In this document: in pieces, positions 1,697 to 19,157 of the stretch | Numbering within the stretch: position 1 is the first letter of the stretch | Layout of the letters: each line of letters opens with the position of its first letter | Notes under the pieces: generated by a model | What the model was told of the DNA's origin: nothing | Seen by the model: the letters and a program-made list of their open reading frames with translations, nothing else | The model's database searches: none | IMG/VR virus record: IMGVR_UViG_3300022924_000007 | Location: 1-44,199 of that record | Origin: a virus | Length of the DNA: 44,199 bases | Strand: one strand, 5' to 3' | Made by a program: the position numbers and the translations under genes

Positions 1697-2033
1697 CAGT
1701 AACAATATAGTATCGTGAACAATTAACCACATACAGACGCTTACACTCTTATACAGTAAAGGTATAACAATTAAGATAGAACCGAGGAATATTATAAATA
1801 AGAATATCAGACAGTTTCTAATCATCATAGGTGCAATAGTTGGCGTACATGTAGGATATTACATCGTCACCATCATAAGCTAAATACATATTATAACATA
1901 AAGGGGGCAATCATGCAAAAGCTTACACAAGCTGAATACATCGCATTAGTGTTAGAAATCAACGAAATCACACTATAGTAAGAGACGGTGCAGGGATAGA
2001 CACAAGATCACAGAAAAATACAGCACAAAAGGG

Positions 2034-2062
2034 TTGACAATAAATAATAAGTAATGTAGTAT
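2034..2062 (+). promoter_or_regulatory. early promoter: TTGACA-N17-TAGTAT followed by AAGAGT
   Basis: ttgacaataaataataagtaatgtagtataagagt; the layout is shared with the promoter at 3402 (TTGACT-N17-TATCAT-AAGAGT). Confidence 0.6.
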
Positions 2063-2125
2063 AAGAGTATCACTAAGTTAAACGAGTATAAAAAATCTCG
2101 GCTTGGGGGATACGAAAGGAATGAC

Positions 2126-11568: not shown

Positions 11569-11801
11569 TGGGCTTTCAGGATATGCCTCGTGTATTACAT
11601 GAAGCAGCCAGTCGCAAAGGTGGAGGGGTTAGGAAGCCGAAAGGTTTGGCTAAACAATCATTAGAACGACGTAAAGAAATAGCTTCTTTGGGAGGCAAAA
11701 CAAGTGCAGATAATCGTAGAAAAGGAACCAAGCAGACGCAAGTTGATTCACATAACCGTGGAACGAACTTGGCAGACGTTCTTGGAGCATTAGATGAATA
11801 A
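11568..11801 (+). CDS. small basic protein with KGG-type (YciG-like stress repeat) motifs, 77 aa
   Basis: SRKGGGVRKPKGLA...RRKEIASLGGKTS resembles the GG-x-FA...A-x-x-GGxxS repeat. The start is uncertain (GTG at 11568 or ATG at 11583). Confidence 0.45.
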   Translation: MGFQDMPRVLHEAASRKGGGVRKPKGLAKQSLERRKEIASLGGKTSADNRRKGTKQTQVDSHNRGTNLADVLGALDE

Positions 11802-12180
11802 GTACAGAAATAAGTTTGAGGAGAAGACCGGAGATGACCTTACACAAAAAGGAATACAGTTTGGGTACGAGACCGAGAAGCTTGATTACAGCGTTGCCGG
11901 CAGGTACTTACCGGATTTCATCATCACACGGAAGAACGGTAGTAAGGTTTATATCGAGACCAAGGGAAACGGACGTTCATTTGACGGCCCTTCCCGTAGG
12001 AAGCTACTCGCCGTTAAGTCCCAACACCCTGAAGTTGATCTCAGAATTGTATTCTACTCAGATGGGAAAATCGGGGCAACACGAAAAGATGGTTCCAGAG
12101 CAACTCAATCGGAGTGGGCAGAAAAGAACGGCTTTAAGTGGGCGATCAAAGTAATTCCGGAGGCATGGCTTGAGGAATGA
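11794..12180 (+). CDS. T7 endonuclease I-like Holliday junction resolvase, 128 aa
   Basis: YLPDFIITRKNGSKVYIETKG matches the endonuclease I PD-(D/E)XK core (Y.PDF...G..hE.KG). Confidence 0.7.
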   Translation: MNKYRNKFEEKTGDDLTQKGIQFGYETEKLDYSVAGRYLPDFIITRKNGSKVYIETKGNGRSFDGPSRRKLLAVKSQHPEVDLRIVFYSDGKIGATRKDGSRATQSEWAEKNGFKWAIKVIPEAWLEE

Positions 12181-13429: not shown

Positions 13430-14092
13430 GGCCTCTAAGCTATATTAGATGTGAGGATAACTGGCGGTGGAACAACTTTTGTGACCCAGTACCGTCTTAT
13501 GGTGTGGTGTATAGCCCTTTATTGGGATTTGAGAAATTGGCTCTGCTTCGGTATCCAACTCATCTAGCATGGAATCTTGGTGCAAGTCCAAGTCACACTT
13601 TTTATATGCCCGTACCTGCAGGAATTGGCCAAGCAGGTGTTAGCTAACGGGTTGGGGTAGCTCCCCATCAAGAACCCACGAGGATGATAATTTGTTTCAT
13701 TAGTAGTGGTTTTACACATTTCTTCGGAAGAGATATTTGCACATGCGTGTTGACTCTAAATAAACAGTGCTTTATGCCACTAACTCAGCGAAGTAATCGT
13801 CTCGTTGACCTGTTGAATTGAACTTACTTCATACTTGAAGGGAAGGAAACTACGAGATAGCCGTGCACAGGCGATTCTGAAAGTGCCAACAGCGAGAGAA
13901 GAAGGAAGACGGTTGGAGTCCGTGCGGTGGCTACAATTATTGATACAGACAAGGCAGCTTCTGTGGGAAGGTTATGCATAAACACCCAGAGTCGCATACA
14001 CGGTTGGAGGCGTAAGTCCCATAAAGGAAGTCCGTGGTAGGTAGCGTGTGGTATCCGTTTATGGTGGGAACATTTCGTAAAAATGTTAATCA
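13430..14092 (+). ncRNA. candidate large structured ncRNA (GOLLD/ROOL-class or novel); boundaries approximate
   Basis: There is no plus-strand ORF in the track. The region is G+C richer than its flanks and holds many short perfect helices, UUCG loops, T-arm-like hairpins and a duplicated module. It lies immediately upstream of the tRNA-like element and the tRNA. Confidence 0.4.
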
Positions 14093-14174
14093 GGGGTAGT
14101 AACTGGTTTGATTGCATTGAAAGCCTGAAAAGGAACGATGTAAGACGAGTGTTCGATTCACTCCTACTCCACCA
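14093..14174 (+). ncRNA. 82-nt tRNA-like element: 7-bp acceptor stem (G3:U70), T-arm GAGTG-TTCGATT-CACTC, encoded ACCA, no canonical D or anticodon arm
   Basis: Hand fold: ggggtag (14093-14099) pairs with ctactcc (14164-14170). The T-arm is 14147-14163 and the discriminator A plus CCA is 14171-14174. Confidence 0.5.
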
Positions 14175-14313
14175 AACAATATAGGGTGAATTAGTAGTCC
14201 TTTAGATATGCCACTAGCCTCTTCGTGAAAGCTAGTCCCCAGTCTATAAAGTTCTGCACCGGAACGGGTAGGTGTCTGGTTTCTGTCAGAGTTCCATGTT
14301 AAAAACTCAAGAA

Positions 14314-14390
14314 CAGGGTGTAACTCAGTTGGTTAGAGTGCTCGGTCTGGAACCGAGATGTCGGGGGTTCGAGTCCCTCTGCCTTGACCA
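14314..14390 (+). tRNA. tRNA, anticodon UGG (Pro by anticodon), 77 nt with encoded CCA; noncanonical C33 and A37
   Basis: Full cloverleaf folded by hand. Acceptor cagggtg/tgccttg (C1:G72, G3:U70). D-arm actc-agttggtta-gagt. Anticodon arm ctcgg-tctggaa-ccgag. Variable loop atgtc. T-arm ggggg-ttcgagt-ccctc. A73-CCA. Confidence 0.8.
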
Positions 14391-15906: not shown

Positions 15907-16173
15907 ATGGCTAAAGATATATTAGGTAAAGATATCCAAGAAGGTCAGTTTGTTATTCAAGCTGCAGGACAGGGGCACGATAAATGGCTCCAGATTGCTG
16001 TAGTTCTTGAAGTAATAGATGAAAACAACGTTAAAGTTCAGTCACAATCACGACCGGGCATTGTTAGGTGGGTAAATAGCAGACTACTTGTCATGGAGAC
16101 AACGGCTGGAATGACTAGCGAGAATGTCAATAAATTAGAGAAATTTTATGTTGATTATAGGAGCAAGAAATAA
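15907..16173 (+). CDS. hypothetical protein, 88 aa
   Basis: ORF preceded by RBS aaggag. Confidence 0.65.
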   Translation: MAKDILGKDIQEGQFVIQAAGQGHDKWLQIAVVLEVIDENNVKVQSQSRPGIVRWVNSRLLVMETTAGMTSENVNKLEKFYVDYRSKK

Positions 16174-17162
16174 TGTCAAGAACAGCGCCATTCCCCAAGA
16201 TTATACATATCGGGGATAAACAGATTCAAGACCTATTCGACGACACTGTAGAAATTACAGAAAAAGTAGATGGTTCACAGTTCGGATTCGGTAAGGTTAA
16301 CGGTGAGTTATTCTGTCGAAGCAAGGGCCGTGAAATTGACATGGACAATCCAGATAGAATGTTCATTAGCGGTGTAGAATACGTAAAAACTATTCAAGAT
16401 AGAATCCCGGATGACTTTACGTTCTATGGTGAGTATCTACAAAAGCCTAAACATAATTCATTAGCTTATGATAAAATACCACATAATCATATTGCATTAT
16501 TTGCAGTTAATGATAACGGTAAGGACAAGAAGTTCTTAGACTACGATGCTATTAAACACTGGGCTGAAGTACTAGACATAGATGCAGTACCACTATTATA
16601 CCAAGGTAAGTCCGGCCCAGAAGCTGTGCTTGAAATGGTAAAGAATAAAGTTAGTTATCTTGGTGGACAGAATATTGAAGGTGTTGTGGTGAAAGCTTAC
16701 AAGCCTTGGCTGTTTATGAATCAGATACCGCTAAACGTAATGGCAGGTAAATATGTTACAGAAGACTTCAAAGAGGTACATAATAAGAGCTGGAAAGCTG
16801 AACACACCAATAAGGGTCAACTCGAAGTGGCGATTAGTAACTACAAGAGTGAAGCACGGTGGAATAAGGCCATACAGCATTTACGAGACGCAGGAAATCT
16901 TACCGGGACACCTCGTGATATCGGAGCACTCATCAAGGAAGTCCACAAGGATATAGCCGAAGAAGAGAAAGAATCAATCAAAGCAGCACTATGGTCTATC
17001 TATAATGATAAGTTCATGAAGGCAGCTACTGAAGGATTTGCTCAGTGGTATAAAGAGAAAATAATGATTGAAGGAGTTGAACCAAATGTTCAAGAGAGTA
17101 ATGCTAGTCCTGATAGCAGCAGTGATACTGTTGGTACCGGCGACAACGACACAAGCGTATAG
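16173..17162 (+). CDS. ATP-dependent RNA ligase (covalent nucleotidyltransferase), 329 aa
   Basis: Motif I EKVDGSQ (KxDG), motif III FYGEYL, motif IV IALFAV, motif V EGVVVKAYK. It lies 1.1 kb upstream of a Pnk-like gene. Confidence 0.75.
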   Translation: MSRTAPFPKIIHIGDKQIQDLFDDTVEITEKVDGSQFGFGKVNGELFCRSKGREIDMDNPDRMFISGVEYVKTIQDRIPDDFTFYGEYLQKPKHNSLAYDKIPHNHIALFAVNDNGKDKKFLDYDAIKHWAEVLDIDAVPLLYQGKSGPEAVLEMVKNKVSYLGGQNIEGVVVKAYKPWLFMNQIPLNVMAGKYVTEDFKEVHNKSWKAEHTNKGQLEVAISNYKSEARWNKAIQHLRDAGNLTGTPRDIGALIKEVHKDIAEEEKESIKAALWSIYNDKFMKAATEGFAQWYKEKIMIEGVEPNVQESNASPDSSSDTVGTGDNDTSV

Positions 17163-18054: not shown

Positions 18055-18295
18055 CGACAAAAAACAACGCCGAGTAAAACGACAACTTAGGAAGGTGAAC
18101 AGGCAACTGGTCGCCCTAACTATTAAAAAGTTATTCGGTGATACAACGACAGAGATCAAATATACACCAGACATTGACCCTAAATTAAGTAACAAGCAGC
18201 GACTTGTTAAACGACGTATTCTTAATGGACGGATTAAAGTTGACGGCAAGGTGTTCAATCCAAAGACTGGGGATTTTGAATTAGATGCAGCCTAA
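18047..18295 (+). CDS. hypothetical highly basic protein, 82 aa
   Basis: ATG at 18047 overlaps the previous stop. The N-terminus is Lys/Arg-rich (KKQRRVKRQLRK). Confidence 0.55.
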   Translation: MHNDKKQRRVKRQLRKVNRQLVALTIKKLFGDTTTEIKYTPDIDPKLSNKQRLVKRRILNGRIKVDGKVFNPKTGDFELDAA

Positions 18296-19157
18296 ACCAG
18301 AACTACTAATGTTGAAAGGCTTACCAGCTTCAGGTAAGTCTACACATGCTAGAGAGCTTGTTGATAAGGGATACGTCCGAGTCAATAAAGATGATCTACG
18401 CAAAATGTTAAACAACGGCCAATACAGTAGGCCAAATGAAGCTGCAGTACTTAAGTTCCGTGATACTATTATTAATGAATCATTGCAGAATGGTAAAAAT
18501 GTAGTAGTAGATGATACAAACTTTGAACAGAAACACTATGATCGGTTAAGCGAAATAGCACAGAACCAACAAGTGAACTTCCGAGTACTGTTTATTGATA
18601 CACCTCTTGAGGACTGTATTAAACGCAATGAAGCTCGTGCTGACAAAGTACCGTTGGAAGTTATATATCAAATGTATAATAGACACATTGCACCACTAAG
18701 GAACGATAAGGAGATTAACTACGATGAAGAACTTGATGAGTGTATTATCGTTGACATTGATGGGACTCTTGCTCATATTAGCAATGGGCGTAGTCCCTAC
18801 GATGCTAGAAGTTCCGGCGCTGATACTGTCGATGATTCTGTTGCTGGCATTGTTGCCATGCACTATCGTCATGGATACAAGGTCATCCTCTTCTCAGGAC
18901 GAGGAAAGCTCGAAGGCGAAGAAGAAGCAACGATTCAATGGCTCGCAGATAACAACATTGCCTATGACGCACTCTATCTACGACCTGTGGGAGATGGCAG
19001 GAAAGATACCGAAATCAAAGAAGAGCTCTTCAACACACACATTAAAGGTAAGTACAACCCACGGTTCGTCATTGATGATCGTCCGAGTGTCTGTAGAATG
19101 TGGCGACGTATTGGACTCAAAGTCCTGCAAGTAGGCGACCCTCATGTTGAATTTTAA
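18285..19157 (+). CDS. polynucleotide 5'-kinase / 3'-phosphatase (T4 Pnk-like), 290 aa
   Basis: P-loop GLPASGKST and VNKDDLR in the N-terminal kinase domain. HAD motif I VDIDGTLA and a later FVIDDRP in the C-terminal phosphatase domain. Confidence 0.8.
   Translation: MQPKPELLMLKGLPASGKSTHARELVDKGYVRVNKDDLRKMLNNGQYSRPNEAAVLKFRDTIINESLQNGKNVVVDDTNFEQKHYDRLSEIAQNQQVNFRVLFIDTPLEDCIKRNEARADKVPLEVIYQMYNRHIAPLRNDKEINYDEELDECIIVDIDGTLAHISNGRSPYDARSSGADTVDDSVAGIVAMHYRHGYKVILFSGRGKLEGEEEATIQWLADNNIAYDALYLRPVGDGRKDTEIKEELFNTHIKGKYNPRFVIDDRPSVCRMWRRIGLKVLQVGDPHVEF

Follow-up and report, generated by a model that had tools for sequence, protein, structure and literature searches.

Together, tmRNA and SmpB form the main ribosome-rescue and protein-tagging system of bacteria. 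Full-length tmRNAs are also encoded by phages, including Bxz1-like mycobacteriophages, Bacillus phage G, and pelagiphages and methylophages with two-piece ssrA genes (PMC4131195, PMC9004378), and a 2025 tmRNA database contains 79 phage sequences along with nine sequences overall classed as 'Standard, no CDS' (PMC11915505). Hudson, Lau & Williams 2014 list 'Mycobacterium phage DS6A (TLD only)' (PMC4131195), where TLD denotes the tRNA-like domain. According to the accounts of Mao et al. 2009 given in PMC4131195 and PMC11915505, a DS6A-like TLD-only molecule strongly inhibited tmRNA in E. coli, perhaps via titration of SmpB. CDS-less tmRNAs are further known from jakobid and oomycete mitochondria (RF02544) and from Mallomonadaceae plastids, where they measure ~65 bp (PMC11915505, which cites Jacob et al. 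2004 for the organellar CDS-less forms).

We analyzed a 44,199-bp stretch of viral DNA (hereafter the window), which is a whole IMG/VR record with direct terminal repeats and is 100% complete by CheckV. At ~45% GC, this genome encodes a tailed-phage gene set with podovirus-like virion genes. Besides terminase, portal and internal virion proteins, it specifies a Dda-like helicase, a DNA polymerase exonuclease subunit that stands alone, and both an RNA ligase and a polynucleotide kinase. Among deposited phages, MW202692.1, an uncultured freshwater 'Podoviridae sp.', comes closest, with 43.7% terminase identity. On the (+) strand, positions 14093-14174 are a genuine conserved phage gene for a tag-less ('TLD-only', or mini-) tmRNA. 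The phage TLD-only tmRNA of DS6A was already known; the comparisons made here bring out a syntenic slot held over deep divergence, an invariant alanine identity and invisibility to ARAGORN. A full-text literature search for 'mini-tmRNA' as a term returned nothing.

Architecture of the tRNA-like domain

The gene spans 82 nt with its CCA encoded and comprises the tRNA-like domain only, as delimited by RF00023, by the covariance model R1 described below and by the minimum free energy (MFE) fold. RF00023 (tmRNA) aligns with 14093-14174 from one end to the other, scoring 48.6 bits against a gathering score of 47 (E 2.7e-16, whole window), and is the best tRNA-clan model at this site; the alignment covers model positions 1-374, with 304 positions in the middle replaced by 12 nt. 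A resemblance to tmRNA had been proposed in a first-pass annotation of the locus, and a score above gathering with both ends aligned bears this out.

Pairing of GGGGUAG (14093-14099) with CUACUCC (14164-14170) forms a 7-bp acceptor stem in which G3 at 14095 faces U70 at 14168, followed by discriminator A73 and the encoded CCA (14171-14174). A perfect T arm, GAGUG-UUCGAUU-CACUC, occupies 14147-14163 in the sequence, the Rfam alignment and the MFE fold. Both helices, down to the G3:U70 pair and the terminal A-CCA, had been described in the first-pass annotation and stand as placed there. The intervening stretch did not hold up as described: it measures 47 nt instead of the 45 nt first given, and in place of a lone short gcat/atgt helix it forms an eight-pair helix 2 with a capped hairpin. 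This region is structured, yet not as D and anticodon arms, and the anticodon arm is absent. The D-loop analogue UAACUGGUUU (14100-14109), located by the cmscan alignment, reads CUGGUUU versus the tmRNA consensus cuGGaUUC, with a one-base deletion. The 5' strand of helix 2 (P2, 14110-14119) has its partner at 14136-14145, where a tandem G·A/A·G (14110-14111 with 14144-14145) precedes eight Watson-Crick or G-U pairs between 14112-14119 and 14136-14143. The 3' strand CGAUGUAAGA and a junction C (14136-14146) provide the 'GAC-G' junction of tmRNA. In the MFE fold, the apical module AAAG-CCU-GAAA-AGG-AA (14120-14135) consists of an A-rich internal loop and a 3-bp CCU-GAAA-AGG hairpin with a GAAA loop, which caps helix 2. 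The overall fold of acceptor, 8-bp helix 2, A-rich internal loop, hairpin and T arm has an energy of −24.2 kcal/mol (z −2.4). The features of a tRNA-like domain are present throughout (acceptor with G3:U70, A73-CCA, T arm, D-loop analogue and helix 2 with tandem G·A), and at 82 nt, with standard order, a closed helix 2 and no CDS, the gene falls within the 65-90 nt of a DS6A-type TLD-only tmRNA. We regard the element as almost certainly a homologue of the tmRNA tRNA-like domain.

The 16-nt apical module stands in place of ~300 nt of tmRNA that would hold the resume codon, the tag frame and all pseudoknots. The window element has no mRNA-like domain (resume codon and tag frame to stop), its 304 RF00023 positions being reduced to 12 nt, and pseudoknots PK1-PK4 are absent, as just 16 nt separate the helix 2 strands and leave no room. 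Since the resume codon, tag ORF and pseudoknots are missing, the RNA is incapable of full trans-translation. An RNA with only the tRNA-like domain of tmRNA, devoid of mRNA-like domain and pseudoknots, had been predicted, in agreement with both the deleted middle of the RF00023 alignment and the grouping of the element with that of DS6A by R1. A one-codon tag was also considered, but the apical GCC-UGA (14123-14128) is a chance occurrence whose frame is neither conserved nor enriched, within a module closed by helix 2. Across the family, GCN...stop frames are not enriched (8 of 38 minis versus 12.6±2.9 in shuffles).

The first-pass annotation had also reported no cloverleaf, and ARAGORN concurs: with default thresholds it makes no call at 14093-14174 and returns only tRNA-Pro at 14314-14390, while its relaxed call is shifted and mismatched. 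A canonical tRNA was rejected on inspection of that call, as ARAGORN at 80% forces a poor 'tRNA-Phe(gaa)' from 14096 that gives up the perfect acceptor pairing and contains mismatched acceptor and anticodon stems. At 60% with introns, the program yields a nonsensical 141-nt 'tRNA-Ala' at the mini-tmRNA site. Other tmRNA classes fared no better. A permuted or two-piece tmRNA was rejected, with RF04321 reaching only 13.7 bits (gathering 47) over the T arm and 3' end and the gene order being standard; the mitochondrial tmRNA class (RF02544) was rejected on the same gene order, the acceptor 3' piece not being placed before the 5' piece. A larger tmRNA with an upstream 5' strand was likewise discarded, the sole other GG(A/G)GTAG (13654) being part of a local GGGGUAGCUCCCC hairpin with no D-loop analogue. 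Finally, an attP or integration remnant is not supported: a PF00589 search found no tyrosine integrase in the window genome, and the element keeps the 5' half of the tRNA-like domain, which attP does not need.

The DS6A element (JN698994 28478-28560; tmRNA Website tmID 11587) measures 83 nt versus 82 nt for that of the window. Both possess an acceptor with G3:U70 and A73, a D-loop analogue, helix 2, an ACG junction and a T arm, as well as an A-rich internal loop with a short CC/GG hairpin, and both are phage-borne and uncalled by ARAGORN. In contrast, the DS6A 3' end is ACUA with CCA not fully encoded, whereas the window encodes ACCA; furthermore, unlike helix 2 of DS6A and in departure from the tmRNA consensus, that of the window starts GAU rather than GAC. 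DS6A is a mycobacterial siphovirus of 69% GC, whereas the window is an unrelated uncultured 44-kb phage of ~45% GC, and of the two only the DS6A-type molecule has been put to an experimental test. With bacterial tmRNA (SsrA, RF00023) the window shares the 5' GGGG..G, a UGG..U..GA D-loop analogue, the tandem G·A at the helix 2 base, the GACG junction, the GUUCGAUUC T loop and CUCCACCA, but it is without ~304 consensus positions that include the resume codon, tag ORF and PK1-PK4. Organellar CDS-less tmRNAs are similarly natural tmRNAs cut down to the tRNA-like domain, conserved in their case with SmpB encoded elsewhere. They are mostly circularly permuted two-piece genes, in contrast to the standard-order viral gene of the window, and they descend vertically from endosymbiont tmRNA and serve their own ribosomes, whereas the window RNA would act on those of another organism. 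Full-length phage tmRNAs are also phage-encoded ssrA homologues, often in or near tRNA clusters, but they keep a tag frame and are seen by ARAGORN, whereas the window gene has no message and is missed.

Covariation and alanine identity among viral relatives

IMG/VR was scanned with two patterns for 68-89-nt elements with 5' GGGG..G, 3' ..CUCCACCA and short spacing. These scans also caught tRNA-Tyr and 73-74-nt tRNA-Ala(UGC)-like genes; with these discarded ahead of alignment, 35 unique minis remained. Both patterns forced GGGG...CUCCACCA and left helix 2 and the mid T stem unconstrained. The MAFFT alignment of these 35 minis has its four helices 90% paired versus 68% in shuffles, and a covariation score of 0.544 versus 0.144 in shuffles and ≤0.116 in slid controls; the pattern-free helix 2 and mid T stem are rich in compensatory changes. 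G13 and G55 are invariant and U15/U16 nearly so, with G18 in 32/35, A53 in 35/35 and C54 in 33/35. The apical motif (G/U)AAAnCC...GGnA(A/C) is shared by most of the 35 minis and by DS6A, which reads GAAAACC-loop-GGUAC versus GAAAGCC-loop-GGAAC in the window. A covariance model built from this alignment (R1), for which the window was in the training set and DS6A outside it, scores the window at 79.8 bits and the DS6A element at 60.6 bits. Sequence comparison shows homology of the window RNA to the tmRNA tRNA-like domain and to the DS6A element, within a family that extends over many unrelated phages with GC from 0.43 to 0.73.

A third pattern used internal motifs only, GGUUUCGAC...GGACG...GUUCGAnUC, and left the acceptor unconstrained. 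In all 26 complete unique viral minis obtained in this way, the 7-bp acceptor is perfect and both G3:U70 and A73 are present, while acceptor pairs 4-7 vary freely (e.g., GGGCCAC, GGGACCG, GGGCGGG) and CCA is encoded in 10. G3:U70 is the alanine identity pair. The sole exception seen to the alanine set is copy A of the two-copy relative G005 (G3:C70, no CCA), whose sister copy keeps the full set. Retention of G3:U70 and A73 in 26/26 minis while the other acceptor pairs vary indicates that alanine identity is under selection, and the alignments show purifying selection on both the structure and the alanine identity set. This invariance suggests that the mini-tmRNA must be recognized, and probably charged, by AlaRS, and neither a relic nor a processing handle nor a pure protein sponge would readily explain it.

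On balance, we lean towards a model in which the mini-tmRNA is charged with alanine, binds host SmpB, competes with host tmRNA and blocks tagging. Transcribed on the early (+) strand along with tRNA-Pro, it would be excised by host tRNA-processing enzymes, loaded with alanine by host AlaRS and bound by host SmpB and EF-Tu, and would then compete against the tmRNA of the host for SmpB as well as for stalled ribosomes that hold no mRNA. Because the RNA offers no message to resume on, nascent chains would be left untagged and would escape the ssrA degradation tag during infection. A PF01668 search of the complete window genome found no SmpB gene, so any SmpB used must be that of the host. Among the functions offered in the first-pass annotation, an alanyl-accepting or SmpB-binding decoy would fit best, given that G3:U70 and A73 are invariant. 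Charging may not be needed for the effect; the invariant G3:U70 argues that it would matter in nature.

The TLD elbow and helix 2 base contact SmpB, and these features are the most conserved internal positions of the family, which would also be expected of a pure sponge that sequesters host SmpB (perhaps AlaRS/EF-Tu) from tmRNA, with charging and ribosome entry irrelevant. Such a sponge needs no G3:U70, A73 or perfect acceptor, yet the 26 unconstrained minis keep all three while neighboring pairs drift, and one copy in the two-copy genome retains the full alanine set; we consider this explanation unlikely. The invariant alanine identity is also accommodated by tag-less ribosome rescue, in which Ala-TLD·SmpB would enter and help recycle stalled ribosomes, the benefit being translation capacity and not a block on tagging. 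Investment of the phage in the translation apparatus, in the form of tRNA-Pro and an RNA ligase and polynucleotide kinase 2-4 kb downstream, points the same way. However, we know of no route to free peptidyl-Ala-TLD from the ribosome without a message and stop codon. Tag-less rescue has been proposed for mitochondrial CDS-less tmRNAs; those of jakobid and oomycete mitochondria and of some plastids are conserved with SmpB and are suggested still to handle incomplete mRNAs (PMC11915505). The sole experiment quoted in PMC4131195 and PMC11915505 nonetheless shows tmRNA inhibition, not rescue, and we judge rescue to be quite improbable. Under the preferred model of competition with host tmRNA, a phage gene retaining only the charged, SmpB-binding part of tmRNA would be a natural minimal antagonist or hijacker of tmRNA-SmpB, and a handle both on whether phages gain by switching tagging off and on how the ribosome responds to a message-less tmRNA.

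The internal pattern returned 39 stretches in the viral collection, of which 38 are true minis; across 185,579 prokaryotic species, each represented by a single genome, it returned 9, with 4 true minis (three Actinomycetota, one Bacillota) and 5 chance matches that have no acceptor stem. With 38 viral versus 4 prokaryotic minis by the same pattern, the family is mostly phage-borne. A same-strand tRNA lies ≤300 nt from the mini-tmRNA in 14/39 loci, often 2-6 nt away, a proximity that would fit co-transcription and tRNA-type processing. Phage tmRNA surveys depend on ARAGORN (PMC9004378), and because ARAGORN misses the mini-tmRNA, its frequency in phage genomes is probably underestimated. The family is under-annotated, and the window adds a member from an uncultured phage lineage unrelated to DS6A. 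BLAST of 14093-14276 against 50,697 phage records gave T-arm-sized matches only.

The 73-74-nt tRNA-Ala(UGC)-like genes set aside above lie at L023:1108-1180(-), L026:2697-2769, L035:1985-2057(-) and L063:3873-3946, within large phage tRNA arrays. They possess G3:U70, ACCA and a reduced D arm, and ARAGORN does not call them. L035 additionally has a full-length tagged tmRNA (11699-12057). A 343-nt 'tmRNA' reported by ARAGORN in L040 was dismissed as an artefact, with 'Tag not identified' and its 5' end in coding-like sequence.

A syntenic slot in the lineage of the window

The gene order transglycosylase, mini-tmRNA, DNA polymerase exonuclease is conserved in the window, L003, L004, G005/L114, L056, L091 and L101, and in all R1 finds same-slot copies in eight related contigs besides the window; in L100, only the transglycosylase side of the slot is visible. 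Exonuclease identity to the window ranges from 78 to 55% across the same-slot relatives. In L008 and L009 (exonuclease identity 53% and 42%), the copies are located downstream of the exonuclease gene, with tRNA genes on either side. These relatives were reached by two routes: L003, L004, L008 and L009 were picked solely by protein similarity to the exonuclease gene, after which R1 found their mini-tmRNAs, and L056, L091 and L101 were found by the RNA pattern alone, after which tblastn showed lineage kinship and the same gene order. In the latter three, the mini-tmRNA may or may not be accompanied by tRNAs in the slot. R1 also finds copies in G005, a complete 43.9-kb relative. The mini-tmRNA gene holds a syntenic slot across deep divergence.

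Across 11 lineage copies, 96% of cells are paired and 17/22 pairs are compensatory in an alignment that was fitted to the model and so favors pairing; 0/500 shuffles reach the observed value, and slid controls are ≤52% paired. In lineage alignment A5, the acceptor is 100% paired with covarying pairs 4-7, all 8 P2 pairs are compensatory, and the T stem is 100% paired with 4/5 pairs compensatory. Between the window and G005 copy B, acceptor pairs 5-7 and T-stem pairs 3-4 have changed with full compensation, and the apical hairpin of copy B (L114:1501-1581) is nearly identical to that of the window. Conservation in related phages, on which the first-pass annotation had staked its proposal, is seen here, with compensatory changes in the lineage copies.

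These data bear most directly on the possibility that the element is a decayed tRNA-Ala or tmRNA fragment, serving at most as an RNase P or 3'-processing handle in a polycistronic RNA. Such a relic could be expected in an ORF-free RNA cluster beside a tRNA gene, which is where the window mini-tmRNA sits. Neither MW202692.1 nor the complete genomes G002 and G003 (59% exonuclease identity) possess the gene, which is dispensable in some relatives; loss of this kind, together with the G005 paralogue L114:1298-1374 that has lost G3:U70 and CCA, is also what decay would produce. Decay does not, however, account for heavy covariation in all four helices with syntenic copies down to ~42% protein identity, for a family that spans many unrelated phages, or for the invariance of tmRNA positions dispensable for processing (G13, the G·A tandem, the ACG junction, G3:U70 and A73). 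The relic reading is largely refuted by the covariation, and we find it barely credible; the 'degenerate tRNA' and 'processing handle' raised in the first-pass annotation are both disfavored on these grounds.

Individual copies vary in their details. G005 (L114) has two mini-tmRNAs, at 1298-1374 (A) and 1501-1581 (B), one on each side of a conserved block. Copy A belongs to the L056/L091/L101 type, with G3:C70 and no CCA, and copy B has G3:U70, ACCA and an unusual T loop, UGCAAUU. The mini-tmRNAs at L008:8022-8094(-) and L009:7845-7915(-) lack the apical CC/GG module, helix 2 being a plain hairpin, and show atypical T loops (GGCGGUG, GGCGGUU) and a tRNA-Trp 4-5 nt away. At ~2005-2090 (+), L114 also contains a tRNA-like sequence, recognized by eye only, with a GGUUCGAUUCC T arm, terminal ACCA and an over-long middle, which ARAGORN does not call.

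The RNA cluster and its neighboring genes

A tRNA-Pro(UGG) gene at 14314-14390 (+), called by ARAGORN and matched by the Rfam tRNA model at 56.4 bits, lies 139 nt downstream of the mini-tmRNA on the same strand, and the two genes form one RNA gene cluster. No convincing promoter or terminator flanks the window mini-tmRNA. Further downstream, by 2-4 kb, are an RNA ligase (phrog_548, PHROG match, 16173-17162, +) and a T4-Pnkp-like polynucleotide kinase (phrog_505, E 1e-85, 18285-19157, +). Together these constitute a tRNA-repair pair, which suggests that host nucleases attack the translation apparatus. In L056 and L101, too, the mini-tmRNA is found alongside a ligase homologue.

The ligase and Pnkp hint at an arms race over host RNA-targeting nucleases, and with it at another use of an alanyl-tRNA-like RNA, either as a decoy for a host defense that senses or cleaves tmRNA or tRNA ends or as a non-ribosomal alanine donor. 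We consider such a use very unlikely: homologues of one or other repair enzyme were detected in only 4 of the fetched loci, for which flank coverage is limited, and the conserved features are exactly the SmpB/AlaRS/EF-Tu interface. A more active, charging-dependent counter-measure is conceivable though doubtful. In this scenario, mRNAs would be cleaved during infection, for example by host abortive-infection nucleases, and Ala-TLD·SmpB would enter the ribosomes stalled on them and take the nascent chain untagged. The invariant G3:U70 and A73 would fit such a need for charging. If true, phage proteins would escape ssrA-directed proteolysis, and the mini-tmRNA, tRNA-Pro and RNA ligase/Pnkp would constitute a 'translation-protection' island.

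The remainder of the intergenic region was also surveyed. Between a conserved leader and the mini-tmRNA, 13490-14092 is a ~600-nt ORF-free stretch. The 1.15-kb gap was rejected as one large structured RNA, since 13490-14092 folds no better than shuffles (z +1.8); this segment has no Rfam match at E≤10, no similarity in relatives and ORFs without a PHROG match. Its counterpart is missing in L004, L003 and G005, and because the leader of L004 is only 11 nt from the mini-tmRNA, 13490-14092 looks like a window-specific insertion.

Directly after the mini-tmRNA, a block at 14184-14276 (+) is conserved to a degree that exceeds that of the flanking genes. Its counterpart at L114:1380-1473 is 91.5% identical, that at L004:3238-3317 is 89% identical, and L007 has part of the block. 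The block holds a hairpin (AGAU..ACUAGC, a 12-nt loop, and GCUAG..AGUCU) in which 4 sequences show 3 compensatory pairs. Rfam has no match for the block, which probably represents a further small RNA or RNA motif that has escaped annotation. At the other end of the cluster, a short hairpin-forming element (13455-13489, +) lies directly 3' of the transglycosylase stop, with 80% identity at the same position in L004:2636-2670, and may be a processing or termination signal that heads the RNA cluster.
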